Source of the DNA: Candidatus Eiseniibacteriota bacterium
Lineage (GTDB): Bacteria; Eisenbacteria; RBG-16-71-46; JAFGJU01
Direction: 5' to 3'
Length of the DNA: 64,000 nucleotides
Assembly (NCBI GenBank): GCA_026388185.1
Contig: JAPLKG010000008.1
Location: 273,149 to 337,148 of the forward strand
Made by a program: the position numbers and the translations under genes. The notes beneath the pieces were generated by a model. The model ran no database searches, was not told the DNA's origin, and saw nothing but the letters and a program-made list of their open reading frames with translations. Shown one piece after another: positions 1,521 to 64,000 of this stretch. Position 1 is the stretch's first letter; the number at the start of each line of letters is the position of its first letter.

Positions 1521-2498
1521 TTGCTAACTTGCCTCAGGGGGAAGACGACTTTGGGTAAACAGCTCAGGTGGGCAACGGTGTATGTTCTTGCCAGAGGTTT
1601 GATGCTGCTGGGCCGCGTTCTTCCGCGCTCGGTGGCGTTGAGATTATTTGGTGGGCTCGGCGCGGCGGGTTTCCTTCTGCTGCGTAGAGACAGGACGAGA
1701 GCTGAGGTCAATCTGTCTCTCGCGTTCTCCGAGTATTCAAGGAAGGAGATTCGCAAGCTCGCTCGCCGTGTTTACGTGGAGCTTGGAAGAAATTGTGTGG
1801 ACGTCTTCGGGCTGTCTGCGTTGAAGTGGCACGAACTGGATGACTTCGTTAGTGTGCAGGGTGTGACTCACTTCGATGAAGCCGTGTCGCGCGGGAAAGG
1901 CGTAATAGCCGTAACGGGTCACATCGGTTGCTGGGAGCTCTTGGCGGCGTACTTTTCAATGATCGGATATCCGCTGGCCGTTATTGTTCGACCGCTCAGG
2001 GATCGGAAGCTCGAGAAGTTGATCGACGACTTGCGGAGGTCAAAGGGAATGAAACCCATCTCGAGAGTGAGCAACGTCAAGGCCGCGTACAGTTGGCTTA
2101 AACGCGGTGGAGTACTGGGGGTGCTCATCGACCAAGACACGTCGGTCAAGGGTACATTCTGTGATTTTTTTGGTCGTCCGGCGTTCACGCCTGTCGGGCC
2201 CGCCTATCTGGCTCTGCGTACGGGCGCAGCGATCGTGCCGATGGCCATTCAAATGGAAGAAGATGGCACTCACACGATACGAATAAGAGAGCCTATCGAC
2301 GTTCCTCGCGACCTGGACACGGAGACGTGCGTGCATTCGGTCATGCAGGCGTGCACGCAGGCCATAGAGGACTACATCAGACGCCGGCCGGCCCAGTGGG
2401 TCTGGATGCACGAAAGATGGAAGACCGCGTCCGCCCCGGCGAACGTGAAGGCCGAAAGCGAGGCTTCGCGAGGAAAAGGATGCGCCGTTCAAACCTGA
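1521..2498 (+). CDS. lpxL: Lipid A biosynthesis acyltransferase (LpxL/HtrB-type lysophospholipid acyltransferase family); true start probably internal (GTG 1578 or ATG 1602)
   Basis: N-terminal hydrophobic segment then acyltransferase core (VTGHIGCWELLAAY..., ...RPAQWVWMHERWK); family-level call only. Confidence 0.7.
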   Translation: MLTCLRGKTTLGKQLRWATVYVLARGLMLLGRVLPRSVALRLFGGLGAAGFLLLRRDRTRAEVNLSLAFSEYSRKEIRKLARRVYVELGRNCVDVFGLSALKWHELDDFVSVQGVTHFDEAVSRGKGVIAVTGHIGCWELLAAYFSMIGYPLAVIVRPLRDRKLEKLIDDLRRSKGMKPISRVSNVKAAYSWLKRGGVLGVLIDQDTSVKGTFCDFFGRPAFTPVGPAYLALRTGAAIVPMAIQMEEDGTHTIRIREPIDVPRDLDTETCVHSVMQACTQAIEDYIRRRPAQWVWMHERWKTASAPANVKAESEASRGKGCAVQT

Positions 2499-3055
2499 AG
2501 TATTTTCTCCTGATTGCCGTTTTCTGTTGCGCGATATGCGTGAGCGTGGCAGGCTGCGAAAAGCACTCGAGTTCGAGTCCCGAAAAGACTCCCGCAGAGA
2601 CACCGGATCAGGAAGTGGGGAATTTTTCCCTGACCGAGAGCCTGGAAGGCACCAAGAAGTGGACTCTTTGGGCAGAGTGGGCAGCCATTTACAACGAAAA
2701 GGCGAAAGTTCATGCGAGAAACGTCCGAATAGACTTCTTTGAGGAGGACGGCACCAAGTTTTCCGAGCTGAAGGCCGACTCCGGGATAATTGACCAGAAA
2801 ACCAACGACATGGAAGCTCGGGGGAACGTGTTCGTAAAAACTGAGGACGGTATCACTCTCGAGACCCAATCCTTGAGTTGGCTCAATCTTGCTCAGAAAA
2901 TACTGTCCGACGATTTCGTGAAGATAACTCAAGGGAGAGACGTACTTACCGGCTTCGGTCTAGTTAGTGATCCCAGCCTCAACGAGTTCGAGATAAAGAA
3001 GAACGTTCAGGCCTTCGTGATCGACAAAGAGGGTAAGCTCGTCCCGAAGGGATAG
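2480..3055 (+). CDS. lptC: LptC-like LPS export periplasmic protein (membrane-anchored, possible lipobox VAGC)
   Basis: ATG 2480 preceded by AGGAAAAGGA; N-terminal hydrophobic anchor then OstA-like beta-rich sequence; directly upstream of lptB. Confidence 0.55.
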   Translation: MRRSNLKYFLLIAVFCCAICVSVAGCEKHSSSSPEKTPAETPDQEVGNFSLTESLEGTKKWTLWAEWAAIYNEKAKVHARNVRIDFFEEDGTKFSELKADSGIIDQKTNDMEARGNVFVKTEDGITLETQSLSWLNLAQKILSDDFVKITQGRDVLTGFGLVSDPSLNEFEIKKNVQAFVIDKEGKLVPKG

Positions 3056-3068
3056 CCAGGAGGCGGCA

Positions 3069-3803
3069 GTGGGGGAAGCGATGAAAGTTCTCAAAGCCGA
3101 GGGGCTTGTAAAGAATTTCGGGAGGTGGACCGTGGTGAACGACGTGAGCCTTGAGGTCGGGCAGGGCGAAGTCGTGGGGCTTCTCGGGCCAAACGGAGCG
3201 GGCAAAACGACCACGTTCCACATGATCGTGGGTCTCCTCAGACCCGACGCGGGCAGAGTCATGCTCGCTTCTGCAAATGTGACTCGCGTCCCCGTTTTTC
3301 GCAGAGCCCGCATGGGACTTGGCTATCTTTCCCAGGAACCCTCCATTTTTAGAAAGCTGACCGTGAGGGAGAACATCCTCTCCATCTTGGAGACCCTGGA
3401 CCTCACCCACAAGGAGCGAGAGACCAGGGTCGCGAGTCTCCTGGAAGAACTCGGAATCTCTCACCTTGGTGATCGGAGTGCCTACAAGCTCTCCGGAGGG
3501 GAGAGAAGGCGAGTGGAGATCACGAGGGCGCTCGTGAGTAATCCAAGTTTCATGCTGCTGGACGAACCCTTTGTCGGCATAGACCCCATCGCCGTCGGCG
3601 AGATTCAAGACATCGTTCTCAGACTGAAGCAGAAAGGAATAGGGGTCCTCATCACGGATCACAGTGTCAGGGAAACTCTTTCGGCCACGGACAGGGCGTA
3701 CGTCATGTTCGAGGGGAGAATACTGCTCTCCGGCACCGGAGAACAGTTGGCCGGCGACCCTCTTGCCAGGAAGATATATCTGGGCGATAAATTCAGGCTC
3801 TAG
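3069..3803 (+). CDS. lptB: LPS export ABC transporter ATP-binding protein LptB
   Basis: Walker A GPNGAGKTT, ABC signature LSGGERRRVEITRAL, Walker B MLLDEP; conserved lptB-rpoN order. Confidence 0.9.
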   Translation: MGEAMKVLKAEGLVKNFGRWTVVNDVSLEVGQGEVVGLLGPNGAGKTTTFHMIVGLLRPDAGRVMLASANVTRVPVFRRARMGLGYLSQEPSIFRKLTVRENILSILETLDLTHKERETRVASLLEELGISHLGDRSAYKLSGGERRRVEITRALVSNPSFMLLDEPFVGIDPIAVGEIQDIVLRLKQKGIGVLITDHSVRETLSATDRAYVMFEGRILLSGTGEQLAGDPLARKIYLGDKFRL

Positions 3804-3823
3804 CGCAGGGATTGGAACGTGAC

Positions 3824-5233
3824 ATGGAACTAAAGCACAGTCTTCAACTGACACAGAAGCCCACGTTGATAATGACACAGAGGCTTCAACAGGCACTGAA
3901 GCTACTGCAAGTGCCCACGCTCGAGCTTCAACAGATCTTGAAGCAAGAGCTTCTTCAGAACCCTCTCCTGGAAGAAGTGGACGAAGAGGAAGAAGTTCAA
4001 GAAACGTCCAGCTCCGAAGAGGAGACGAGCACGGCGGACGAGCCCGAACCCGTGGAGAAAGAGGATCCGCTTGAGTGGGCCGAGTACTATCAGGAAGGCT
4101 ACGATGCATCTCCGGGCAGACCCGACAACTCCGCCGATCTGCCCGAACGGGTCCCGATCACAGTTCCCACACTGCGCGAGCACCTGCAGAGTCAGTTGAG
4201 AATCTCCACCGACGATCCCGAGCTTACTGAGATTGGGGAGTTTCTCATAGGTTCCATCGACGACAGGGGATTCCTCACGATTACCGCCGAAGAAGTGGCG
4301 ACGTTGATTGGAAAACCCGTGGAGAGGGTTGAGGAGGCCATCAAGTTGGTCCAGTCGTTAGAACCTCCGGGCATCGGCGCACGGGATCTGAGGGAATGCC
4401 TCCTCATCCAGTTGAGTCGTGAGGACGCGGCCGAGAGTCTGGCCGCCAGAATAGTCAGAGATCATTTCGATTCCCTCAAGGATAGAAAATTCGCCGAGAT
4501 CGCAAAGAAGATGCGTGTTCCGATCGTACAGATCCAGGCAGCGGGCGACATAATCTCGAGACTCAATCCGAAGCCGGGTTTCTTGATATCGCAGGAGGAA
4601 CCGAGGTACGTGGTTCCGGACCTGGTTGTGGATAAGGTCGAGGACAAGTACGTCGTGTTTCTCAACGACCGCCACGTTCCGAGGCTTCGCATCAACCCTT
4701 CGTATCGAGACATGTTGCGGGGAGAAAAGGCTCGGAAGGACAAGACAAGAGAGTACATCATAGGCAAGCTCAACTCAGCGAAATGGCTTATTCAGACGAT
4801 AGAACAGAGACGAAAGACCATGGTCAAGGTGATGAAATGTATCGTGGACAGTCAGGAGGAATTTCTCGACAAAGGGATCGCCTTCTTGAGGCCTCTGACT
4901 CTGCAACAGGTGGCCAATCAGATTGGAATGCACGAATCAACCGTCAGCAGAGTCACAAACAACAAGTATGTGCAAACCCCGAGAGGGGTGTTCGAGCTCA
5001 AGTTTTTCTTCTCGAGCAAGTTGCAGACCGATGCCGGCGAAGATATGAGCGCGAAGAGCGCGAAGGACATAATCTCCGTGCTGGTGGAGGAAGAAGACAG
5101 GTCGGATCCTCTGAGCGACCAGAAGATTGCCGACATCTTGAGAGATAGAGGTCTCAGGATCGCAAGGCGCACCGTGGCAAAGTACAGAGAGCAGCTGAGA
5201 TTACTACCGGCTCGCTACAGAAAACGACACTAG
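3824..5233 (+). CDS. rpoN: RNA polymerase sigma-54 factor RpoN
   Basis: N-terminal Gln/Leu-rich region (LQLTQKPTLIMTQRLQQALKLLQ), acidic linker, C-terminal RpoN box ARRTVAKYRE. Confidence 0.9.
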   Translation: MELKHSLQLTQKPTLIMTQRLQQALKLLQVPTLELQQILKQELLQNPLLEEVDEEEEVQETSSSEEETSTADEPEPVEKEDPLEWAEYYQEGYDASPGRPDNSADLPERVPITVPTLREHLQSQLRISTDDPELTEIGEFLIGSIDDRGFLTITAEEVATLIGKPVERVEEAIKLVQSLEPPGIGARDLRECLLIQLSREDAAESLAARIVRDHFDSLKDRKFAEIAKKMRVPIVQIQAAGDIISRLNPKPGFLISQEEPRYVVPDLVVDKVEDKYVVFLNDRHVPRLRINPSYRDMLRGEKARKDKTREYIIGKLNSAKWLIQTIEQRRKTMVKVMKCIVDSQEEFLDKGIAFLRPLTLQQVANQIGMHESTVSRVTNNKYVQTPRGVFELKFFFSSKLQTDAGEDMSAKSAKDIISVLVEEEDRSDPLSDQKIADILRDRGLRIARRTVAKYREQLRLLPARYRKRH

Positions 5234-5271
5234 CCGTTCTTGTGTCCACGTTCCCGCAGGGGTAAACGTTG

Positions 5272-6153
5272 ATGGCAGTTGCCAGGCTTCCCCTCTGGGC
5301 CAGAAAGCCGTTCGCCGAAAACAATGCGACGCGTGAAGTCGACCGTCTGTTGGAGACGCTCGGGCTGAACACAGTCTGCAGGAGCGCGCGATGTCCCAAC
5401 AGGTGGGAATGCTATTCTTTGCCTTCCCTCACTTTCATAATCCTTGGCACAGTCTGTACGAGAAAATGTGGGTTCTGCGGCGTCTCGAAAGGAGAGCCTG
5501 GAAGCGTCGATGCCCGAGAGCCGTTCCGCCTCGCGCAGGCCGCGAGGAAGCTCCGGCTCGATTTCGTGGTGCTCACTTCCGTAACGAGGGACGACCTGTC
5601 GGACGGCGGGGCGTCTCATTTTGCCAGGTGCGTGGAGGAACTGCGAGGGATAGAGACCGGGCCGGGAGTCGAAGTTCTGGTCCCTGATTTCGGAGGGGAA
5701 AGCCGATTCTGTTTGCTTGTGCTGGAGGCACGTCCTGATGTATTCTCTCACAACGTGGAAACCATACCCAGGCTTTACCCGACGGTGAGGCCCGGCGCCG
5801 ATTATTCTGTTTCGCTCAAGCTTATCGAAACTGCCGCGCTTCGTGCCTCAGGCAGCGTCGTCGTCAAATCGGGGTTCATGGTCGGTCTTGGTGAGAAAGA
5901 GGAGGAGGTGATGGATGTTCTGAGAGATCTTAGGAATGCGGGCTGCCGGTCTGTCACAATAGGGCAATACCTCAGGCCCACGTTGCGCAGCCTGCCCGTC
6001 AGAGAGTACGTTTCCCCTGAACGTTTCCGCCACTATGAGGAGACGGGAAAGCGGTTGGGATTCGACGCCGTGTATGCTGGCCCCCTGGTCAGAAGTTCAT
6101 ACAAGGCTTTTGAGATTTGGAGGAATGTCAATGGAGATCACGACTCGAAGTAA
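5272..6153 (+). CDS. lipA: Lipoyl synthase LipA (radical SAM)
   Basis: Auxiliary cluster motif CRSARCPNRWEC and radical-SAM CTRKCGFC motif. Confidence 0.85.
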   Translation: MAVARLPLWARKPFAENNATREVDRLLETLGLNTVCRSARCPNRWECYSLPSLTFIILGTVCTRKCGFCGVSKGEPGSVDAREPFRLAQAARKLRLDFVVLTSVTRDDLSDGGASHFARCVEELRGIETGPGVEVLVPDFGGESRFCLLVLEARPDVFSHNVETIPRLYPTVRPGADYSVSLKLIETAALRASGSVVVKSGFMVGLGEKEEEVMDVLRDLRNAGCRSVTIGQYLRPTLRSLPVREYVSPERFRHYEETGKRLGFDAVYAGPLVRSSYKAFEIWRNVNGDHDSK

Positions 6154-6649
6154 GAATTTCACTGCAAGCCCCGCAATCAGGAGTTATACCGAGGAGAAAC
6201 TCTCCAAGCTGGAGAAGTACTCGAAAAAACTCGTTGAGGCCCACGTGATGTTCTCTCTCGAAAGATACAGGCACATTGCTGAAGTCGTGCTTAGGCTTAA
6301 CGGTGGTGATATCACGAGTCGCGCCGAAAGCAACGACATGTATTCTTCCATTGATACGGTTGTTGATAAGCTCGAAAGGATGTTGAATAAGAGGAAAGAC
6401 AAGGTCACGAGCAGGCGCCAGAGGGGCTCTTTGAAGGAGTCTGGGGCCAAGCTCGAGACGTTAGGGAAACTCGCGACCCTCAGGCCGAAAAAGGTCGTGC
6501 CTCGACAAATGACCGTGGAAGAGGCCATGGACGCTCTGGAAAGAAGTCGCGAGGACATTCTGATATTCGTGAATGCTGCGACGGAGAGAACCACGGTGCT
6601 TCAAAAGAGAGGCGACGGAAACTTCGCTCTGATGGAGCCGGTGAGCTAA
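6131..6649 (+). CDS. hpf: Ribosome hibernation promoting factor HPF (long form with C-terminal dimerisation domain)
   Basis: MEITTRSKNFTASPAIRSYTEEKLSKLEKY... typical HPF/YfiA N-terminus; GGAGGA 8 nt upstream of ATG 6131; overlaps lipA 3' end by 23 nt. Confidence 0.8.
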   Translation: MEITTRSKNFTASPAIRSYTEEKLSKLEKYSKKLVEAHVMFSLERYRHIAEVVLRLNGGDITSRAESNDMYSSIDTVVDKLERMLNKRKDKVTSRRQRGSLKESGAKLETLGKLATLRPKKVVPRQMTVEEAMDALERSREDILIFVNAATERTTVLQKRGDGNFALMEPVS

Positions 6650-6650
6650 G

Positions 6651-7619
6651 ATGCACGGAATCACAATTAGCAGATTCTATGATGATAAACGTGAGGATCT
6701 TCATCTGGAACTCCTCACCAAATCCCTCGAGTCCAAGACAGAGATCACGGCGAGTGACGTGAATAGACCGGGCCTCGCTTTTGCAGGGTTCGTCGGGAAT
6801 TTCCTCCACGAAAGGGTTCAAGTCCTCGGGCAGACGGAATCACTCTATCTGGGCACGCTTCCGGCCGACAAGAGGAGGGAGGCAATCGGGAGGCTGTTCA
6901 ATTTCGCTCTCCCTTGCATCATCGTGGCGAAGGGGCTGGACGTGCCGCCCGAATTCATCGAACTCGGAAATGCTCATTCCGTGCCCATTCTCAGGACCTC
7001 CCTCACTACCACTCCTTTCATACGTGAGCTGACGGCCTATCTTGACGACGTGTTTGCTCCGCGCACGGTGGTGCACGGCTCTCTTGTGGACGTCTATGGC
7101 ATAGGGCTTTTGTTCACCGGACGGAGCTCCATCGGTAAGAGCGAGTGCGCGCTTGACCTTGTGGAGAGAGGTCACAGGCTCGTGGCCGACGACGTCGTGA
7201 ACGTCATGAAGCGGCACGGCAATTTCCTCATAGGTATTTCCTCGGAAATCTTGCGGCATCGCATCGAGATCCGAGGACTCGGAATAATCGACGTGAGAAG
7301 CATATTCGGGATCCGATCCGTCAGACTCCAGAAGAGAATCGAAGTGGAAGTCAGGCTCCAGGATTGGAGTGACGCAGATGACTACGAGAGAATAGGGCTC
7401 GAAGATAGGATGACAAACGTACTCGACGTCGAGATTCCGATTGTCACGGTACCGGTCGTGCCCGGCAAGAACATCACTGTCATCGCAGAGGTGATAGCCC
7501 TCAATCACATTGTGAAGATCTACGGATATCATCCTGCCAAAGACTTTGATGAGAAGCTCATGCAGGCCATGCATCGCAAGAGCTTGCAAGACAGGCTCGT
7601 CAGCGGTGATTGGGAATGA
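6651..7619 (+). CDS. hprK: HPr kinase/phosphorylase HprK
   Basis: P-loop GRSSIGKSE and HprK signature HRIEIRGLGIIDV. Confidence 0.9.
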   Translation: MHGITISRFYDDKREDLHLELLTKSLESKTEITASDVNRPGLAFAGFVGNFLHERVQVLGQTESLYLGTLPADKRREAIGRLFNFALPCIIVAKGLDVPPEFIELGNAHSVPILRTSLTTTPFIRELTAYLDDVFAPRTVVHGSLVDVYGIGLLFTGRSSIGKSECALDLVERGHRLVADDVVNVMKRHGNFLIGISSEILRHRIEIRGLGIIDVRSIFGIRSVRLQKRIEVEVRLQDWSDADDYERIGLEDRMTNVLDVEIPIVTVPVVPGKNITVIAEVIALNHIVKIYGYHPAKDFDEKLMQAMHRKSLQDRLVSGDWE

Positions 7620-57314: not shown

Positions 57315-58067
57315 ATGCGGAAAAAGATCGTAGCAGGCAATTGGAAGATGTATAAAACCCCCGGCGAAGCCGTTTCTCTGGTGACACAGATCATCGCGTC
57401 CGCTCCTCCTCGTTCGGATCGTGACGTCGTGCTCTGCCCTCCGTTCACGGCTCTTTCCCGCGTGTCACAACTGCTCAAGGGCTCGCGTATCGAGCTGGGA
57501 GCGCAAAACCTGCACTGGGAGAAGGAGGGGGCCTACACCGGAGAGATCTCCGCGCCGATGCTCAAAGAGCTGGGATGCGAATACGTGATTGTGGGACATT
57601 CTGAGCGCAGGCAGTACTTCGGCGATGACGATTCGGTCGTTGCCAAGAAGCTTGGGGCGGTGCTTGCGGAGGGAATGACGCCCATCCTCTGCGTCGGCGA
57701 GAAGCTGGAGGAGAGAGAGGCAGCGAGAACGGAAAGTGTGCTTGAGTCGCAGATCAAGGGAGCTCTGGGCGGCTTTGACGCAAGGCAACTCGTGGACCTG
57801 GTGGTTGCATACGAACCCGTCTGGGCGATAGGGACGGGTAAGACAGCCACGTCGGAGATGGCTGTGGGAGCTCATAAATTCATAAGGAAGCTGCTTGACA
57901 CCATGTTCGGGTCTCCCTTCGCAGAGCAAACCCGAATTCAGTACGGGGGAAGCGTCAAACCGGAGAACGCTTCCGAACTCCTTGGGGAGTCCGAGATTGA
58001 CGGAGCACTCGTAGGTGGGGCGAGCCTCAAGGCCGATTCGTTCCTGAGAATCGTCGCCGCCGGTTGA
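57315..58067 (+). CDS. tpiA: Triosephosphate isomerase
   Basis: AGNWKM, IVGHSERR, AYEPVWAIGTG motifs. Confidence 0.95.
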   Translation: MRKKIVAGNWKMYKTPGEAVSLVTQIIASAPPRSDRDVVLCPPFTALSRVSQLLKGSRIELGAQNLHWEKEGAYTGEISAPMLKELGCEYVIVGHSERRQYFGDDDSVVAKKLGAVLAEGMTPILCVGEKLEEREAARTESVLESQIKGALGGFDARQLVDLVVAYEPVWAIGTGKTATSEMAVGAHKFIRKLLDTMFGSPFAEQTRIQYGGSVKPENASELLGESEIDGALVGGASLKADSFLRIVAAG

Positions 58068-58124
58068 GAGTGCGAGGTGCGATGCGGGCCGGCCGGGGCG
58101 ACCGCCCGGCGACGGTAAGGCCCG

Positions 58125-58153
58125 TTGACGCGAGGGAGAATTTCTGTTAAAGT
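58125..58153 (+). promoter_or_regulatory. Possible sigma-70-like promoter TTGACG-17 bp-TAAAGT upstream of secG
   Basis: -35-like hexamer at 58125..58130, 17-nt spacer, weak -10 at 58148..58153. Confidence 0.3.
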
Positions 58154-58212
58154 AAGGTGTTGTTGTAGAATTGGGTTGGCGTACCGTTTTTTGTTCATGA
58201 TGGGGGTCTGAC

Positions 58213-58758
58213 GTGTTTGCCTTCTTATTGGTTCTTCACTTGCTGATAACCGCTGCTCTGGTCATTGTCATTCTGCTTCAATCTGGCAAGGGAGGGGGGC
58301 TCGCCGGAGCATTTGGGGGGGGAGGCGGCAGCCAGACGATTTTCGGCGGCAGGGGTGCTGCGACTTTCTTGAGCAGGTCTACCGCCGTGCTGGGCGCCGC
58401 GTTCATGCTCACTTCCATGAGCTTGGCCCTGCTGACGACTAGGGGTCCAGTGAAGCGAGAGCGGAGCGTGATTGAGAACGTCATCAGGAAGGAGAGGGCG
58501 TCACAGCCCGCCCAGACACCACAAGGCGGAGTTCCTTCAGGGAGTCTTCCTGCGGGGAGAGTTCCGCTTGGGCAAACTCCAATCGGCGGTTCTTCTCAGT
58601 CGACGTCTCCGGCCGGTACTCAGTCAACCGTGACTCCGGGAACGGGACAAGTGGCCCCGGGAGCCGGTGTAGTCCCTAGTCAGACGGCGCCTGCTGCCGG
58701 GACGACGCAACCGACCCAACAGAAGAAGCCAACCGGAACATCGGCTACCGGAAAATAG
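58213..58758 (+). CDS. secG: Preprotein translocase subunit SecG with long low-complexity C-terminal extension
   Basis: GTG start; two TM segments flanking Gly-rich loop (LLQSGKGGGLAGAFGGGGGSQTIFG); ~100-aa Q/T/P/G/S-rich tail; conserved gap-pgk-tpiA-secG-tRNA-Leu order. Confidence 0.8.
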   Translation: MFAFLLVLHLLITAALVIVILLQSGKGGGLAGAFGGGGGSQTIFGGRGAATFLSRSTAVLGAAFMLTSMSLALLTTRGPVKRERSVIENVIRKERASQPAQTPQGGVPSGSLPAGRVPLGQTPIGGSSQSTSPAGTQSTVTPGTGQVAPGAGVVPSQTAPAAGTTQPTQQKKPTGTSATGK

Positions 58759-58777
58759 ACGCCCTAGCTTCCCACGT

Positions 58778-58862
<85 letters not shown>

Positions 58863-58944
58863 TAAATCCCATAACTGCTTGTCGCCGTGTAAGTTGGCAC
58901 GACAGACACTTTTCCTTTTCGCATCCCCAATCAACAGTGACCGA

Positions 58945-59964
58945 TCATCGTACACGCTCCCACTTCCGCACTGTAACTGAGTCTCTAACAGCGAGCATTT
59001 CGTAGATTGAACCGTCTGTCCCTACAATCCAGGGCCCCTTGCCGTAGGTTAAAGTCGAGCGTTCATACCTCGGGAAGTCAATCACGGCGAGCATTCTTCC
59101 ATCTGGAGAATATTTGCTTATCCTTTCGGACGAAGCAGTATCTGTGACCACGAAACTCTGTAGATAGACATTACTCAGACTATCTGTCCCCAAAGAGTCT
59201 CCCGGTAACTCTGCCCAGCCTTTGACCAACTTGCCTTCGTCATCAAACAGAATCGGGTTCCCTTTTACATCCACCTTGCTGTTGCACCGCGCGAAGGACC
59301 GAAAAGGACCTGTGGATGCAAAGATCCCTTCCCGCAAACTCGACAATTGGCTAGAGTCAGGGAGAACTCTTCCCCTTTCCACGAGCTTTATTGATTTCGT
59401 TGCGCGCCAATCGGCTAAATAGACATTCTCATGTTGATCCGACACAATCCCCGCCGAATTGAACTGCGGATACCCCTCTTCCGAACGGCAGAAACTCCAA
59501 GGCACTGCGACTGGCACATTTCTCACTGAATCCACGCCTGCTGCCTTCAAGAACACCCTATATCTGTCCTCCGCATCAGAAGTCTCGCAGAGAATGTATA
59601 TGTCGCCGTTAGGGGGCAGAGTCATGTCCGTGGGAAACAGTAGGTCAACTTGCCAGGCCACGGCCTTGATCGTGTCCACGAATGCTCCATTATTTCCGTA
59701 GACCTTTATGTTTCCTTTCACCCCATCATATATGTAGATGTTCCCATCGGCGCCCATAGTGAAAAATAGAGCCCCGAGATAATTCCCATCGTATCCGTAG
59801 ACCTTCTTCAGTCCGAATTCACTCTCCCCGCCACCGTACTGAGCCTGAATGAGGTTTCGGGGTCTGTAATTCTCGGCCGACAACGCGGTAGCAGGAATGA
59901 GCAAGGCCAAACCCAGCAACGCCGCGATCGATACCAGTCTTGTATTGACTCTCGAACAATCCAT
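58945..59964 (-). CDS. Hypothetical secreted protein, beta-propeller-like repeats; foreign codon usage
   Basis: ATG 59964 (complement) nine nt after AAGGAGG; signal peptide RLVSIAALLGLALLIPATALSAE; repeated GNIYIYDG / GDIYIL / NVYLAD segments; third positions A/T-rich. Confidence 0.5.
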   Translation of the reverse strand: MDCSRVNTRLVSIAALLGLALLIPATALSAENYRPRNLIQAQYGGGESEFGLKKVYGYDGNYLGALFFTMGADGNIYIYDGVKGNIKVYGNNGAFVDTIKAVAWQVDLLFPTDMTLPPNGDIYILCETSDAEDRYRVFLKAAGVDSVRNVPVAVPWSFCRSEEGYPQFNSAGIVSDQHENVYLADWRATKSIKLVERGRVLPDSSQLSSLREGIFASTGPFRSFARCNSKVDVKGNPILFDDEGKLVKGWAELPGDSLGTDSLSNVYLQSFVVTDTASSERISKYSPDGRMLAVIDFPRYERSTLTYGKGPWIVGTDGSIYEMLAVRDSVTVRKWERVR

Positions 59965-60207
59965 CAGCCACACCTCCTTAACTCGGAGAACTGGCGGATA
60001 ACACGCACCCTAGCCCAGGATGGTGATCAAGATACAGGTGCTTTACACTAAACGCCCAGAGAAGCTCAGGAGCGATTCGGGGGACACCGATACACTATAC
60101 TCTCCGATTCCTGTGCTTTGGGTCAACGCGTGACACGAGAGCACGGGATCCGTTCAAAATCCCTGACAGTTTTGCCTGAAGTTGGTCCTGTCGCAACATG
60201 GGTGAAA

Positions 60208-60222
60208 TCCCGCTCCCCGCAC
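60208..60222. repeat. Direct repeat of tRNA-Leu 3' end (candidate att site copy)
   Basis: 15/15 identity to 58846..58860, with flanking partial similarity (GGGTGAAA vs GGGTTCAAC). Confidence 0.7.
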
Positions 60223-60694
60223 TGAAAAATCAGTAAGCCCGAATTTGTGATTCAGCCTCTAAACGCTGCCGTCTCTACTCTGTGCCTCCCTCTAGAAACG
60301 CACGTGCTATTTGCAGTTACTGCTTCTCTGGGTCTTCTGCCAACGACTTTCGGTGAGTGTACAGCTTGGGGTCCTCGGGATGGGAGCCTGACACCGCACC
60401 TTCTACTCCGGCCTTCTGGGTTGGTTTTCCGCTCCGATCCGAACATCTCGGCGCTCCCACTGAAAGAATCTTCCGGATTGCGGGCACAGCGTGCGGTTCT
60501 CTTTCCTCGTTCCCGACTCTGTGATAGCATGTAGTTGGGAATCTGTTGTCACTGTAGTTGCAGATTATCTCCTAAGATCCCCAACAGGTAGTGCTCTATG
60601 GCTGACGGATCCGCATTCACTCCACGGCAGAAGCCCGAGATTCAGGGCGGCATGGTCTCCGTCTTCTGTCGGACGCGGGCAAGGGTGTCCGAAA

Positions 60695-63600
60695 ATGGCA
60701 CGTCGTGATTTGACCTTTCGCGTTTTTGTTAGTTCCACTTTCAGCGACCTAATTGTCGAACGGAATGCGCTTCATGAGCGCGTATTCCCTAAGCTGCGTG
60801 AGTTGTGCCTTCAGCATAGCTGCCGCTTTCAGGCGATTGACCTGCGTTGGGGTGTGAGCCAAGAAGCGACGCTGGACCAGCAGACCATGAACATCTGCTT
60901 GCAGGAGTTGGAGCGCTGCCGATCAATCACCCCCAGACCGAACTTCATGGTGCTCCTGGGCGACCGTTATGGTTGGCAGCCTTTGCCGCCACAGATCGAA
61001 GCCGGAGAGTTTGAAGCAATTCTGGAATGGGTCTCGCCCGAGGAAAAGAAGCTTCTCCTCTGGGGTGATGATCAACCCAAGGGTTCAAAGGGTTGGTATC
61101 GAAAGGATGAGAACGCGGTTCCTGCCGAATACTGTCTCAGGCCACGTGAGCTCAATGTTCCAGAGAATGTGACTGATAAGGAGAGACGGGGGGCCTTAGA
61201 CCGAGAGGCCAAGGAATGGGAAGAGACAGAAAGGATGTTGCGGTCAATTCTCCTTCGGGCTCTGGACCAGCTTGGCTGGCCCGAGGGTGATCCCCGTCGC
61301 ATCAAGCATGAGTACTCAGCCACGCACCAGGAGATAATAGACGGGGCGTTACGTGTGCCAGATGCGCATGAGCACGTGTACTGCTTTTTCAGGGAAATTG
61401 AGGGGTTGCCAATAGAGTCAAGCGCAAGAGGTTTTATTGACCTTGACGAGACCGGACATCTGGATAGTGATGCGCGTGGGAAGCTACAAAGTCTCAAGCA
61501 AAGCATGCGTGATCTCTTGCCCGGCAACGTACGTGAGTACAAGGTGGGATGGGCTGGACGGGGCGTTACGACAGAGCATTTGAACGAGCTCTGCGATGAC
61601 GTTTACAGTGGGTTATCGCGCGTGATACTGGAACAGATCCGGACACTTGAGAAGGTAGATGAGCTGAAAACGGAAATCGAAGAACATGAGTCCTGGGGTA
61701 AGGAACGCGCGCGATTTTTCACCGGTCGAACAAGCATCCTACAACGAATAAGTGATTACCTGAGAGGCACAGATACTCATCCGTTGGCTATCTTCGGTGT
61801 GTCTGGTTCTGGCAAGACAGCGCTGATGGCACACGCGGCACAAAAAGCGCGGGAGATGCTTCCCGGTGCCCGAGTCGTCGTGCGTTTCATAGGTGCTACC
61901 CCGGGCTCATCAGACGGGCGTTCCGTGTTGGAAGACGCCTGTCGTCACATATACAGAGTATTCGATTTTGAAGAACAAAAACAGAACCTCCTTATTGACG
62001 TGCGAGAGATTGGTGAAGAGGAACATAAGAAACGGCAGCGTATTAAGGACGAGTATTCCATCCCCACGGAGTTTCAGAAGCTTTGCGTAACTTTCCAGGA
62101 GTTCGTTGCGAAGATACCACGGTCAGAGAGCCTAATCCTCTTTCTGGATGCTTTGGAGCAACTTTCCGAAAGTGACGACGCGAGAAGCCTCTCCTGGTTA
62201 CCCACTGAACTGCCCCCGAATGTGCGCCTCATTGTTTCATGCCTTGTGGGCAAGTGTCTCTCAGTGCTCCAGGAAGCGCTGCCCGCTGCAAACCTTGTGG
62301 AGTTGGGGTCAATGGAGCCTCAAGAAGGTGAGAGACTCTTGGACCTCTGGCTCCAAGATGCCCGAAGGACTCTTCAGCCTCGGCAGGGGACAGAGATCTT
62401 GGCGAAGTTCCGGAAATGTGCTCTCCCTTTGTATATGAGACTTGCATTTGAGGAGGTCAGGCTCTGGAAGTCTCATACCGAACAGAAAGAGCTGGGTCTC
62501 GACATAGGAGGCGTCATCGGCAACTTATTCCAACGGCTTTCGTCGGATGCGAACCACGGGAGAGTGGTGGTTTCGCGCAGCTTGGGATATCTGGCCGCTG
62601 CGAAGAACGGCCTCGCCGAAGATGAATTGCTGGACATTCTGTCCCAGGATGAAGAGGTTGTGGCAGACTTCCTGCGCCGTTCGCCGCGGTCGCCGCGTGT
62701 TAAGCAGCTGCCTGTTGCCGTGTGGTCGCGCCTGTACTTCGAGCTCAAACCATACTTGACCGAGCGGCGCGCCGATCGGACGTCCCTGCTTGGGTTCTAT
62801 CATATGCAGGTGCGACAGGTCGTGACGGAAAGATACCTGCAGCGTGAGCGGGAACAGATAGTCCGGGACGGGCTGATCCAGTACTTTGGCTGTCAGCCTC
62901 ACCAGCTAGTTGATTCCGCGGGAGGCAAGGCACCCAATGCTCGCAAACTCTCGGAATTGCCCTTTGCCCTTCGACGGTCATGCAGATGGATTGAGCTATC
63001 TGTGCTCTTGACCGACTACGATTTCGTGGAAGCCGAGGTGCAAGCCGGAATGGTCATCGATCTCGTCGGACACTATGGCGAGATTCTGGCAGCAGGGACG
63101 TCGCGGCTGGAAGGGCAGGAGGAGGTACAACTCAGAGCTTGGGCTAACTTCGTGAGGAGCTCGGCTCACCTGCTACTACGCGGCGATGACCCATTTTTTC
63201 AGCTGGCCCTTAACCACGCCGATCGTGGCCCCGTGGTTGCCGCGGCTGAGGAGAGGGCTAGATATCATCCGGGACCGTGGCTCCGCCTGCTCAACCGACC
63301 TGTGCAGGCACAGTACCCGGCATGCTTCCGCACACTGGAAGGCCACACGGACGGCGTTAGTGCACTAGCCTTGACGCCGGATGGTCGCAGGATTGTCTCC
63401 GGTAGCGCTGATCGAACCTTGCGGCTTTGGGACCTTGAGAGCGGGCAATGCGTTCGTACCTTAGGAAAAGACATCGAGACGATAGAGTCCCTTGAAGTCT
63501 CGCCGGACGGTCGGCGCGTGGTTTCAAGTTGCAGATACAGAACGGTACGCGTGTGGGATCTCGAAGGTGGACGGTGTTTGCGCACTTACCGCGGGGGGTG

Positions 63601-64000
63601 GGGAGTGACCGAAAAGGTCACTGTCACTCCGGACGCCCACCTGGCGATATCTTACAGGGTGGACAGACGATTGACTAGGTGTGGTGGCCCTTTGAAACTG
63701 GACGGCACTTTGCGGGTGTGGGACTTGGATGTGGGTGACTGCGTGCGTAGCCTGGTTGGGCATCGTGAGCGGGTCCGAGCTGTTGTGGTAAGCGCAGATG
63801 GGCAAATCGCGCTCTCGGTCGGAGAGGATGGCATCAGGGTTTGGGCGTTGCGTACGGGCCAATGCCTGTGGCTCCTGGGGCGGGCCTCGACCTGGGTGGT
63901 CGCGATGACGCCGGACGGCCACCGCGCGGTCACGTGCAGCTTTGGGGAAGAGGCTCTGCGTATCTGGGATCTCAGTAGCGGGAGATCTTTGCAGACGTTC
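60695..64000 (+). CDS. STAND-type P-loop NTPase (NACHT-like) with DUF4062-like N-terminal domain and C-terminal WD40 repeats; 3'-partial, runs off window
   Basis: Not in ORF track (no stop in window). Hand translation from ATG 60695 is open to nt 64000: MARRDLTFRVFVSSTFSDLIVERNALHERVFPKL...; Walker A IFGVSGSGKTALMAHAAQ near nt 61800; WD40 repeats from ~63330 (GHTDGVSALALTPDGRRIVSGSADRTLRLWDL..., LRVWDLD, LRIWDLS). A/T-ending codons. Confidence 0.75.
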   Translation, partial: MARRDLTFRVFVSSTFSDLIVERNALHERVFPKLRELCLQHSCRFQAIDLRWGVSQEATLDQQTMNICLQELERCRSITPRPNFMVLLGDRYGWQPLPPQIEAGEFEAILEWVSPEEKKLLLWGDDQPKGSKGWYRKDENAVPAEYCLRPRELNVPENVTDKERRGALDREAKEWEETERMLRSILLRALDQLGWPEGDPRRIKHEYSATHQEIIDGALRVPDAHEHVYCFFREIEGLPIESSARGFIDLDETGHLDSDARGKLQSLKQSMRDLLPGNVREYKVGWAGRGVTTEHLNELCDDVYSGLSRVILEQIRTLEKVDELKTEIEEHESWGKERARFFTGRTSILQRISDYLRGTDTHPLAIFGVSGSGKTALMAHAAQKAREMLPGARVVVRFIGATPGSSDGRSVLEDACRHIYRVFDFEEQKQNLLIDVREIGEEEHKKRQRIKDEYSIPTEFQKLCVTFQEFVAKIPRSESLILFLDALEQLSESDDARSLSWLPTELPPNVRLIVSCLVGKCLSVLQEALPAANLVELGSMEPQEGERLLDLWLQDARRTLQPRQGTEILAKFRKCALPLYMRLAFEEVRLWKSHTEQKELGLDIGGVIGNLFQRLSSDANHGRVVVSRSLGYLAAAKNGLAEDELLDILSQDEEVVADFLRRSPRSPRVKQLPVAVWSRLYFELKPYLTERRADRTSLLGFYHMQVRQVVTERYLQREREQIVRDGLIQYFGCQPHQLVDSAGGKAPNARKLSELPFALRRSCRWIELSVLLTDYDFVEAEVQAGMVIDLVGHYGEILAAGTSRLEGQEEVQLRAWANFVRSSAHLLLRGDDPFFQLALNHADRGPVVAAAEERARYHPGPWLRLLNRPVQAQYPACFRTLEGHTDGVSALALTPDGRRIVSGSADRTLRLWDLESGQCVRTLGKDIETIESLEVSPDGRRVVSSCRYRTVRVWDLEGGRCLRTYRGGWGVTEKVTVTPDAHLAISYRVDRRLTRCGGPLKLDGTLRVWDLDVGDCVRSLVGHRERVRAVVVSADGQIALSVGEDGIRVWALRTGQCLWLLGRASTWVVAMTPDGHRAVTCSFGEEALRIWDLSSGRSLQTF

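Follow-up and report, generated by a model that had tools for sequence, protein, structure and literature searches.

In the human proteins NWD1, NWD2, TEP1 and NPHP3, a DUF4062 domain adjoins a NACHT domain and an APAF-1-like helical domain, with WD40 repeats in several of them (Osinski et al. 2026, preprint). Preprints of 2026 describe DUF4062 as a TIR-like NADase, an activity demonstrated no earlier than that year and, so far, in short bacterial proteins and human TEP1 alone. Swarozyc (KpSwz) and Evangelion (Eva01-04) provide defence via NAD+ hydrolysis upon sensing a phage component. TEP1 and KpSwz are active in vitro, ADP-ribose being the only product of both, whereas full-length human NWD1, NWD2 and NPHP3 have no NADase activity in vitro. 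Human NWD1, NWD2 and TEP1 have the NLR-like form, the activation logic of which has so far been a subject of speculation. A second reference point is Thoeris, in which ThsB TIR sensors are combined with a ThsA-type SLOG effector, with types I-XI given in a recent survey (Yirmiya et al. 2025, preprint). Ligands of the ADPR or cADPR type are bound by both SLOG and RyR domains. The locus analyzed here, together with its relatives, is a compact and genetically tractable version of the NLR-like DUF4062 architecture; it lies at the end of the window, i.e., the whole stretch of 64,000 nucleotides of Candidatus Eiseniibacteriota DNA that was studied.

The STAND gene and its protein

Exact translation of the plus strand gives an open frame of 1102 stop-free codons at 60695..64000, the one continuous ORF that a sequence-only reading of the window had claimed. 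The translation is 100% identical to residues 1-1102 of P0001, a 1588-aa protein encoded on a 534,862-bp NCBI contig of a Candidatus Eisenbacteria MAG and already named 'DUF4062 domain-containing protein' at NCBI. Extension for the 3' end, as the same reading had suggested, recovered the full 1588-aa gene from an identical public contig: the Logan contig L001 (window position = L001 + 58795; 5205-nt overlap identical) carries it at 1900-6666, with the stop at window-equivalent 65461. The window part is the 5' 3306 nt, or the first 70% of the protein. Upstream of ATG 60695 the frame is still open as far as GTG 60491; homologs start at the same position, however, which favours the ATG as the start. 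Promoter and terminator scans flanking the gene gave nothing exceeding shuffled controls.

The composition of the gene is less unusual than was claimed. A/T-ending codons unlike those of the host had been reported, but such codons do not predominate; GC3 is 0.614 versus a host mean of 0.678 (sd 0.027, minimum 0.608; z = -2.4), where the 40 long plus-strand ORFs of the window were taken as host genes, and is only modestly low. The total GC of the full gene (0.570) and its codon-frequency distance (0.643) are inside the host range, and the claim of a strong codon bias was rejected on these three measures.

By its architecture and intact catalytic-type motifs, the encoded protein is an NLR-like STAND NTPase with a domain layout of the NWD1/TEP1 type (Pfam matches were judged against the family gathering cut-offs). 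The N-terminus matches DUF4062, as had been read (PF13271, 40.3-42.6 bits versus a cut-off of 24.7; aa 9-95 at 40.3 bits), and belongs to an extended TIR-like domain (aa 1-320, 60695..61654, plus strand) of flavodoxin-type fold, the core strands and helices of which are split by a 77-142-aa insert in all relatives (aa 95-207 in this protein). The full-length family profile was swamped by WD40 proteins in the PDB, and an N-terminal-only profile was used instead; the TIR-like domain of TEP1 was the only PDB sequence match of the N-terminus (E 2.6e-24, family profile). In the alignment, Glu213 (codon 61331..61333, plus strand; motif SATHQEI) falls on the second of the two Glu residues in TEP1 SVTEMEV, chain residue 115, which corresponds to E1008 if numbered from the crystal span 895-1113. 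This residue is kept in 65/65 relatives in one alignment and in 76/77 in another. Glu213 is thus the predicted catalytic glutamate, equivalent to KpSwz E97 and TEP1 E1008, and the DUF4062 head is a predicted NAD+ glycohydrolase, by analogy with these proteins.

The NACHT-type P-loop NTPase domain (aa 334-609, 61694..62521, plus strand) exceeds the cut-offs of AAA_16 (42.4 bits versus 32.6), nSTAND1 (30.7 versus 27.1) and, marginally, NACHT (PF05729, 27.9 versus 26.7), in agreement with the assignment made from the letters alone; the NB-ARC match reaches only E 0.16, and unmarked NACHT matches were recorded in the relatives P0116 and P0009. Walker A (GVSGSGKT) was found where it had been placed, about 370 aa in (aa 368-375, nt 61796-61819, plus strand), and is followed by Walker B (LILFLDALEQL, aa 480-490, nt 62132-62164, plus strand); K374 is kept in 76/77 and D485 in 77/77 relatives. 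The NACHT motif reportedly reads D-[GAS]-h-[DE], with an acidic residue three positions past the Walker B Asp. The corresponding residues here are D485-A-L-E488, and the acidic position is D in 69/77 and E in 3/77 relatives. The P-loop with Walker A and B is succeeded by an NWD1-type winged helix (HTH_NWD1, aa 612-719, 62528..62851, plus strand; 32.8-34.2 bits versus 27) and, between it and the propellers, by an APAF1_C-like helical domain (aa 720-875, 62852..63319, plus strand), for which the APAF1_C score of 21.5 bits is slightly under the cut-off of 22.8; the family profile and APAF-1 align over the helical domain and on through the WD40 region. The C-terminal WD40 repeats start at aa 876 (63320..64000 in the window, plus strand; 93.7 bits versus 27), close to the predicted aa 880. 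At least six repeats had been counted; the window part holds five complete 'xRxWDL' motifs and the whole protein 14, enough for two propellers, spaced by about 42 aa and reaching about aa 1470. A CPHC...CPVC zinc-ribbon tail with weak Pfam matches is at aa 1538-1561, beyond the window.

The protein adds a member to a known and large family of 13,626 representatives, which forms tandem paralog arrays, varies in its C-terminal sensor region and has a patchy distribution across domains of life, archaea included. No NCBIfam family-level match was found, and in PADLOC v2.0.0, which may lack bNACHT models, no model matches the protein: the sole match is WD40-level, to HEAT-ARM_XIII, and the N-terminal 347 aa have none. 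If the protein were a non-immune signalling or scaffolding STAND, i.e., a developmental or stress regulator of a complex bacterium that uses DUF4062 only for oligomerisation, this lack of matches to known defence models would be expected; the in vitro inactivity of NWD1, NWD2 and NPHP3 and the very large size of a family with tandem arrays, seen in regulatory STANDs too, point the same way. We consider such a role very unlikely, however, given that the catalytic-type Glu and the surrounding motifs are almost invariant, the sensor region is variable, the cross-domain distribution is patchy, the neighbouring genes encode TIR and RHS toxin proteins, RelA_SpoT, NUDIX and further STAND paralogs, and the gene itself has a mobile-cassette context.

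Repeat-bounded segments downstream of tRNA-Leu

The tRNA-Leu neighbourhood of the gene, pointed out in the sequence-only reading, was borne out. The tRNA-Leu(GAG) gene (58778..58862, plus strand) closes the housekeeping block tpiA-secG-tRNA, and its 3' end is the common core of a set of repeats, an exact 14-mer present three times. These repeats bound two adjacent segments directly downstream of the tRNA. Copies 2 (60135..60222, plus strand) and 3 (L001 6790-6877, window-equivalent 65585-65672) are 88-nt direct repeats that bracket the STAND gene (75/88 identical, 85%; E 5e-24); they finish with 15-17 nt identical to the 3' end of tRNA-Leu and share, in addition, an element-specific arm that is about 70 nt long. 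The first islet (58863-60222) contains a 342-aa ORF (58945..59973, minus strand), which is matched by neither Pfam nor PADLOC; the ORF is outside the module discussed below and is part of the tandem-cassette structure. Its interpretation as a decayed integrase was rejected, given the missing Pfam match, the signal-peptide-like N-terminus and the repetitive beta-rich sequence. This ORF and the STAND gene are the only genes between the repeats, where no integrase, recombinase or other mobility gene was found. The 88-nt repeat was also considered as a structured RNA or tRNA-like gene and rejected: ARAGORN and Rfam returned nothing, and the folding energy was no better than shuffled on both strands. 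Further copies were found neither elsewhere in the window and L001 nor in 90 other loci and two metagenome scans, and the support for the mobile-element reading therefore comes from the Eiseniibacteriota locus only. Adjacency to tRNA is not a family trait, since any tRNA was present in only 3/79 relative loci.

Just beyond the window end, and convergent to the STAND gene, lie a NUDIX gene and a gene for a RelA_SpoT–TPR–SLOG–RyR protein (the partner). The att-like repeat separates this operon from the STAND gene, which adjoins a 13-codon remnant (MPQPWRTVRVFIS) of the operon's original STAND. The possibility that the intact gene is an inverted copy of the operon's STAND was discarded: the remnant does not match MARRDLTFRVFVS, and no similarity was seen at the DNA level. 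As judged from this comparison, the intact STAND is a different paralog from the original, destroyed one. Because the gene is convergent, repeat-separated and a different paralog, its co-location with the partner operon could be secondary. Overall, what the sequence-only reading observed is confirmed, and its interpretation is partly supported.

Linkage to NUDIX and RyR-domain genes and a candidate pathway

The N-terminal domain of the partner matches RelA_SpoT (66.8 bits) and the structures of RelQ/RelP (E about 1e-11), with synthetase motifs largely intact, the usual EIQIRT reading EIQVKT. SLOG and RyR folds, as well as TPR-S sensor repeats, were found fused to this domain. Taken alone, the Eiseniibacteriota copy scores 18.4 bits for Pfam SLOG, under the cut-off of 25.4, and the RyR 'HP' histidine is Ser.

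A recurrent genomic link of the STAND to RyR-domain proteins and NUDIX was shown by the analysis of related loci. Either the trio or a STAND accompanied by different RyR proteins was seen again in many phyla and in archaea, often as a tight operon; same-strand operons with overlapping genes or 11-77-nt gaps are found in L022, L082, L018, L047 and L088. An RyR gene lies within 3 kb in 19/79 relative loci and anywhere in the locus in 23/79, suggesting that many family members probably act alone. Reciprocally, all six partner-homolog loci examined (6/6) carry a DUF4062-STAND or a canonical TIR gene, and in L081, L087 and L090 canonical ThsB_TIR/TIR_2 proteins adjoin the same partner family. In literature on RyR with NACHT, on PF02026 and on RelA_SpoT or NUDIX with Thoeris, apart from Figure S1G ('selected operons') of Osinski et al., no account of the module was found, and it is apparently an undescribed variant.

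We see an about even chance that these genes form a Thoeris-like signalling module, in which an NLR-type STAND sensor yields an NAD-derived product that gates a RelA_SpoT effector through SLOG and RyR; this is inferred from the ADPR-type ligands that the two domains bind. The WD40 region would recognise an infection-associated ligand, which would free NACHT-driven oligomerisation; the TIR-like heads would then cluster and turn on NAD+ cleavage, a step for which other DUF4062 proteins provide the precedent. ADP-ribose or a derivative of it would result, to be sensed by SLOG and RyR in the partner, and the small-alarmone-synthetase-like domain of the partner would arrest growth through toxic alarmone synthesis or tRNA pyrophosphorylation. 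The NUDIX hydrolase may buffer or reset the nucleotide. In the Eiseniibacteriota locus, the sensor would be the repeat-bounded cassette at tRNA-Leu, beside a partner operon whose own STAND was destroyed.

KpSwz and TEP1 yield nothing but ADP-ribose, which is widespread in metabolism and ill suited as a specific messenger, and NAD+ depletion alone could therefore be the effector step. Alternatively, the STAND may be a stand-alone abortive-infection protein, with the WD40 region sensing a phage protein, oligomerisation and NAD+ depletion killing the cell, and the NUDIX and RelA-RyR genes simply residing in the same island. Avs/bNACHT proteins with TIR effectors and Swarozyc kill in this manner, and the DUF4062 proteins KpSwz and Eva01 act through NAD+ depletion as single genes. 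In 60/79 relative loci there is no RyR gene within 3 kb, and L084 has none; the Eiseniibacteriota STAND is a separate cassette convergent to the partner operon, and PADLOC assigns the RelA_SpoT relatives and the NUDIX relatives to different candidate models, PDC-S33 and PDC-S07, the 'S' prefix of which presumably denotes single-gene candidates. This explanation is, in our judgment, somewhat doubtful: the tight same-strand operons, the reciprocal association, the canonical ThsB-type TIR proteins that take the same position and the two partner domains specialised for ADPR-type ligands are all at odds with it.

The linked genes could also have a safety or regulatory role, with the RyR/SLOG partner and NUDIX sequestering or degrading the TIR-like product, restoring nucleotide pools and preventing autoimmunity from a leaky NADase, while RelA_SpoT feeds a stress response. 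NUDIX enzymes commonly hydrolyse ADP-ribose, phage RyR-domain proteins are sponges or glycosidases of cADPR signals, and small RyR-only proteins (99-130 aa) occur beside STANDs in Bacillaceae loci. We regard this role as unlikely, because a protein that joins SLOG and RyR with a synthetase domain and TPR-S sensor repeats resembles a ligand-gated effector, cf. ThsA, and because loci with several sensor genes per partner (L082, L085, L088, L089) fit many sensors feeding one effector.

Returning to the signalling module, linkage to SLOG/RyR and RelA_SpoT, with canonical TIR replacing the STAND, makes the pathway from NLR-type sensor through NAD-derived product to SLOG/RyR-gated effector falsifiable. 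We advance only tentatively its fullest form, a new type of TIR-based immune signalling in which NLR-like STANDs, interchangeable with ThsB-type TIR, make an ADP-ribose-derived messenger, SLOG/RyR switch on an alarmone-synthetase-type effector, NUDIX is the off-switch and sensors are exchanged as repeat-bounded cassettes. If true, this would be a Thoeris type with new effector chemistry, DUF4062 would be a signal generator beyond a mere NAD+ drain, and the locus would provide a prokaryotic model for ADPR-type ligands at RyR Repeat12 and TRPM2-type SLOG, and for NWD1-family function; the NWD1/TEP1 head, TRPM2 SLOG and RyR Repeat12, three modules of animals with ties to ADPR/cADPR biology, would descend from one prokaryotic signalling toolkit. 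If false, what is left is a further representative of a very large STAND family, for which public databases already have a label.

Comparison with known systems

By layout only, the protein resembles NWD1, NWD2, TEP1 and NPHP3 in the order DUF4062, NACHT, HTH_NWD1 winged helix, helical domain and WD40, and TEP1 E1008 is the aligned partner of its catalytic-type Glu213. Unlike TEP1, it is without TROVE/vWA modules (TROVE is absent among the Pfam matches listed, which comprise the best 25 of the 43 families matched by the window part and the matches of the N-terminal and central segments), it has no N-terminal extension ahead of DUF4062, and TEP1 has about 12 residues where the STAND relatives have the 77-142-aa insert. 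Other differences from human NWD1-type proteins are its prokaryotic origin, the C-terminal zinc ribbon and the linkage to RyR/SLOG/RelA_SpoT and NUDIX genes.

With Swarozyc and Evangelion, the protein has in common the PF13271 domain, the N-terminal FxxFxSSTF motif and the catalytic Glu; KpSwz matched the STAND family profile over 21 residues only (E 0.025). Those systems are short single genes in which the auxiliary region, HTH/winged or other, is small, whereas the STAND has 1588 aa with NACHT and WD40, its activation would be NACHT-gated with WD40 sensors, and it comes with a conserved partner operon. Avs (AVAST) and bNACHT proteins are similar in their N-terminal effector, central STAND NTPase and C-terminal repeat sensor, and in a patchy, horizontally spread distribution with tandem paralogs; the present protein differs by the lack of a PADLOC model match, by a DUF4062 effector instead of a nuclease, canonical TIR, SIR2 or the like, and by the NWD1-type winged helix. 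The segments resemble tRNA-targeted islets and CIME-like arrays in their tRNA 3'-end direct repeats and slightly deviant composition, but are without an integrase, and the repeat is confined to the locus.

A small hydrolase gene beside a synthetase is reminiscent of toxin-antitoxin pairs. The partner is like toxSAS (FaRel, CapRel) and RelQ/RelP in its N-terminal RelA_SpoT domain with synthetase motifs largely intact, and unlike them in the fusion to TPR, SLOG and RyR, the EIQVKT motif and the NUDIX neighbour in place of a small alarmone hydrolase. In comparison to Thoeris, the sensor is a 1588-aa NLR-like STAND with DUF4062 instead of canonical TIR (without PF13676/PF08937, TIR_2 or ThsB_TIR), the effector has RelA_SpoT, TPR and RyR, domains without mention in the text and available supplements of the Yirmiya et al. 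2025 preprint, and NUDIX is a regular third member. What the two have in common is a gene for a TIR-type enzyme adjoining one whose product joins an effector to a SLOG ligand-binding domain, an adjacency that recurs, and several sensor genes per effector gene.

Architecture of the STAND protein and its TIR-like head

The sequence-only reading had placed at 60695 a STAND NTPase frame of more than 1100 aa that runs off the window. Translation of 60695-64000 (+) indeed yielded 1102 stop-free codons, and a protein search returned P0001, a 1588-aa protein, 100% identical across the entire query, that an NCBI contig of 534,862 bp encodes under the name ‘MAG: DUF4062 domain-containing protein [Candidatus Eisenbacteria bacterium]’. 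The contig extension proposed by that reading was supplied by L001, a 10,463-bp Logan contig identical to the window across a 5205-nt overlap (L001 positions plus 58795 give window positions), which completes the gene to its stop at L001 6666 and adds the genes beyond it. Upstream of the ATG, the frame is also open over 68 codons (60491-60694, +), back to GTG 60491. Because an alignment of 64 homologs shows the same start relative to the FRxFVSSTF motif, ATG 60695 is the likely start, and the alignment argues that codons 60491-60694 are untranslated.

The Pfam matches above curated cut-offs were DUF4062 (aa 9-95), AAA_16, nSTAND1 and NACHT (aa 334-609), HTH_NWD1 (aa 612-719) and WD40 (from approximately aa 876), with APAF1_C (aa 770-860) slightly under its cut-off. 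The DUF4062, NACHT-type and WD40 domains had been named correctly, and the P-loop GVSGSGKT and the WD40-like repeats, expected at about aa 370 and 880, were found at aa 368-375 and from about aa 876. The full protein contains 14 ‘xRxWDL’ repeats with a spacing of about 42 aa, a number that suffices for two seven-bladed propellers. The WD40 region is followed, outside the window, by a C-terminal CPHC...CPVC tail (P0001 aa 1538-1561, L001 6511-6582); the cysteine pattern is kept in the family consensus, and this four-cysteine tail is zinc-ribbon-like, with weak matches to Pfam zinc ribbons. We consider the architecture and family assignment near certain.

[quoted passage not shown] According to the same study, bacterial KpSwz (‘Swarozyc’), whose catalytic residue is E97, provides defence through portal-triggered NAD+ depletion, the activity of human TEP1 depends on E1008, and human NWD1, NWD2 and NPHP3 are inactive as purified; a route from WD40 sensing through NACHT oligomerisation to TIR-like activation is the authors' speculation only. 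The sole PDB sequence match for the N-terminal 880 aa of our protein was the human TEP1 TIR-like domain (11gz_A), at E 1.8e-11 for the single sequence and 2.6e-24 for the family profile. The profile alignment splits into two blocks, revealing an insert that separates strand C (LLGDRYGW) from the SATHQEI helix; this insert, of 77-142 aa, is present in 77/77 relatives examined, unlike in TEP1. The family motif SAT[EH]QEI aligns with TEP1 SVTEMEV. With a crystal spanning residues 895-1113 and a 220-residue chain, E1008 would be chain residue 115, the second Glu, matching E213, the predicted catalytic residue of the STAND protein. E213 is conserved in 65/65 and in 76/77 relatives in two alignments, and position 211 is E or H. 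The Walker A Lys is kept in 76 and the Walker B Asp in all of the 77 relatives; there is no sign of decay.

The family is not rare. With clustering at 50% identity, the N-terminal-domain profile retrieved 13,626 cluster representatives with E ≤ 1e-3, of which 2,830 reach E ≤ 1e-30. A search of 100,044 species genomes with two peptide patterns confirmed 210 loci, distributed patchily across many bacterial phyla and several archaeal lineages. Close archaeal relatives, with 38-54% identity over the N-terminal domain, occur at L003, L010, L020, L045, L047, L055, L056, L058 and L076 (Altiarchaeales, Methanoperedens, Methanobacterium, Methanobrevibacter, Methanomicrobia, Methanosarcina and Euryarchaeota). 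The C-termini of the relatives vary widely (WD40, divergent propellers, TPR, or none), and nine loci (L009, L014, L033, L047, L057, L059, L061, L066, L078) carry two to three tandem or nearby TIR-like-NACHT paralogs.

Local history of the STAND gene

The window up to 58067 resembles a co-oriented leading-strand block, with nearly every long ORF on the + strand and a steadily positive GC skew; the skew dips just below zero only in 58001-60000, at the start of the islets. The tpiA-secG-tRNA-Leu housekeeping run ends at 58862. A tRNA-Leu-linked islet beside the gene had been proposed, and the tRNA 3' end does recur, at 60209 and at window-equivalent 65659. These recurrences belong to an 88-nt direct repeat that brackets the STAND gene (copy 2, 60135-60222; copy 3, L001 6790-6877, window-equivalent 65585-65672; 85% identity, E 5e-24), with the tRNA match confined to the final 15-17 nt of each copy (58846-58862 in tRNA-Leu). 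This is the pattern expected of tandem elements that integrated at the tRNA 3' end and share an element arm. A 342-aa ORF (58945-59973, −) occupies the first segment (58863-60222), and the STAND gene alone the second (60223-65672); neither segment contains an integrase. The 342-aa product is secreted-looking, with a signal-peptide-like N-terminus and repetitive beta-rich sequence, has no Pfam or PADLOC match, and its gene has the lowest GC in the region (0.509; GC3 z = −4.1). The repeat has no RNA-structure signal or Rfam match, and neither 90 other loci nor two metagenome scans yielded a further copy; the reading as a mobile element is therefore tentative and drawn from a single locus.

The sister genome L085 encodes a partner protein 88% identical to the RelA-RyR protein beyond the window end, with 89% DNA identity over NUDIX and RelA-RyR. 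This homology ends within the remains of a DUF4062 5' end that follow RelA-RyR directly: in L085 a 66-aa fragment, cut at another point than in our genome, where the remnant comprises 13 codons (MPQPWRTVRVFIS) before diverging and lies 68 nt from repeat copy 3. These are the first 13 codons of a 20-codon ORF (L001 6921-6983, −; window-equivalent 65716-65778) just after the RelA-RyR stop. So each lineage has lost the STAND that originally belonged to the operon, and the intact gene is another paralog, introduced at this site facing the other way.

Horizontal acquisition had also been proposed, on the basis of A/T-ending codons unlike those of the host. That basis does not hold as worded: the GC3 of the STAND gene is 0.61 versus 0.678 ± 0.027 in the 40 long + strand ORFs of the window that served as host reference (z = −2.4, borderline for the host range), total GC is normal, and the codon-frequency distance falls inside the host range. 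The best non-self homolog among 5.8 billion proteins is only 51-58% identical, versus 88% for the partner; together with the mildly low GC3, this points to a STAND origin that is separate and probably horizontal.

NUDIX and RyR-domain genes linked to STAND genes

Downstream of the STAND gene, outside the window and on the opposite strand, lie the RelA-RyR gene (829 aa, L001 6995-9484) and the NUDIX gene (137 aa, L001 9578-9991), the products of which match the PADLOC candidate models PDC-S33 and PDC-S07, respectively. The 829-aa protein, named ‘RyR domain-containing protein’ at NCBI, has RelA_SpoT (aa 53-182), TPR/TPR-S and C-terminal RyR (aa 753-826) domains. Phage RyR-domain (PF02026) proteins bind or cleave 2'/3'cADPR, with ligand residues conserved family-wide (Lopez Rivera et al., PMC13232231). 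The H..W motif (H765, W768) is invariant in 46 partner homologs.

We distinguish four classes of partners: (i) RelA_SpoT-TPR-SLOG-RyR, ~830-870 aa (this locus, L022, L060 and L076, a Methanosarcina in which the partner lies 383 nt upstream of the archaeal STAND relative); (ii) TrkA_N-SLOG-like-RyR, ~600 aa; (iii) an unannotated region of ~800 aa, then RyR; (iv) RyR-only, 99-130 aa, in Bacillaceae. The TrkA_N (NAD-binding Rossmann) proteins frequently share an operon with the STAND, sometimes alongside RelA-RyR (L010:6222-8024, L018:14981-16783, L043:7119-8837, L088:5912-7747, L090:6176-7990). A family of ~880-1100 aa adjoins STAND relatives (L018:12299-14929, L019:4594-7917, L047:7294-9966, L035:670-3966 and others), with full-length or near-full-length members in about 15 loci by homology search; its only Pfam match is the C-terminal RyR, the first ~800 residues having no Pfam or PADLOC match. 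The RyR-only proteins accompany STAND relatives in Planococcus and Neobacillus (L051:15698-16090, L052:16975-17274, L054:15708-16058), with a RyR protein of ~650 aa directly downstream in L051 and L054, and one of ~657 aa located 4.5 kb upstream on the opposite strand in L052; these are cultured isolates, in which the STAND-RyR association is testable. Two partner homologs, P0347 and P0377, are RelA_SpoT-SLOG-RyR variants of ~1050-1060 aa that have a KaiC/RecA-like ATPase domain (PF06745) in addition.

Across 79 loci of STAND relatives, two families of neighbours stand out: STAND paralogs, present in 29 loci, and RyR-domain proteins, present in 26 (counted by homology to one 1107-aa representative). 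The family ranking third occurs in only four. The RyR HMM detected 30 ORFs in 23 of these loci. The density of RyR ORFs is 8 per 82 kb within 500 nt versus 2 per 218 kb beyond 5 kb. Many same-strand abutting STAND-RyR pairs were found, including L022 (stop/start overlap), L018, L047, L027, L035 and L041, and, via homology search, L005. The L022 operon reads NUDIX → RelA-RyR → STAND, and its RelA-RyR protein is 56% identical to our partner over the full length. The module was seen in three of the four closest STAND relatives looked up: L082 reads STAND → NUDIX → RelA-RyR → STAND (gaps of 34, 77 and 11 nt), L081 reads NUDIX → RelA-RyR → ThsB_TIR-TPR → TPR → STAND, and L083 reads STAND → NUDIX before the contig end. 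From the partner side, each of the six independent partner-homolog loci on long contigs has, no more than a few kb away, either a canonical TIR_2/ThsB-type protein or a DUF4062-STAND; NUDIX is present in five, and several encode two or more sensors. Canonical TIR proteins (ThsB_TIR/TIR_2, often with TPR; L081:3587-5725, L087:12088-13500, L090:10510-13785) hold the NUDIX/RelA-RyR-adjacent position taken elsewhere by DUF4062-STANDs.

Proposed mechanism and comparison with known systems

The suggestion that this gene is a candidate anti-phage STAND is reasonable. In signalling to the partner, the STAND would sense infection and its TIR-like NADase would produce a signal for the RelA-RyR protein; we regard this composite mechanism as evenly balanced between right and wrong, and, gene linkage aside, we infer every step of it. 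The rival reading, in which the STAND acts on its own with no signal to a partner, we consider less likely.

Taken alone, the STAND adds one new member to a large family that already carries annotation and whose effector domain has been characterised only lately. The Evangelion systems are DUF4062 single-gene systems, and untested ‘bacterial TEP1-like’ proteins with TROVE, NACHT and WD40 have been mentioned (Ibarra-Chavez et al., 10.64898/2026.06.25.731849). In contrast to the latter, the STAND protein has no TROVE domain among the Pfam matches listed; given this absence and that of any PADLOC model match, P0001 is an NWD1-like prokaryotic STAND, of a kind noticed before but unstudied. The conserved NUDIX + SLOG/RyR-protein module appears undescribed: no description was found in the literature searched, a scope that excludes the ‘selected operons’ figure of Osinski et al.

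A Thoeris-like mechanism is proposed because three points together recall Thoeris: canonical TIR proteins and DUF4062-STANDs interchange beside one partner family, there are many sensors per partner, and the partner has two ADPR-type ligand domains. That this is a signalling system of a new Thoeris type, in which sensors are exchanged like cassettes, is the strongest reading, and a tentative and somewhat doubtful one.
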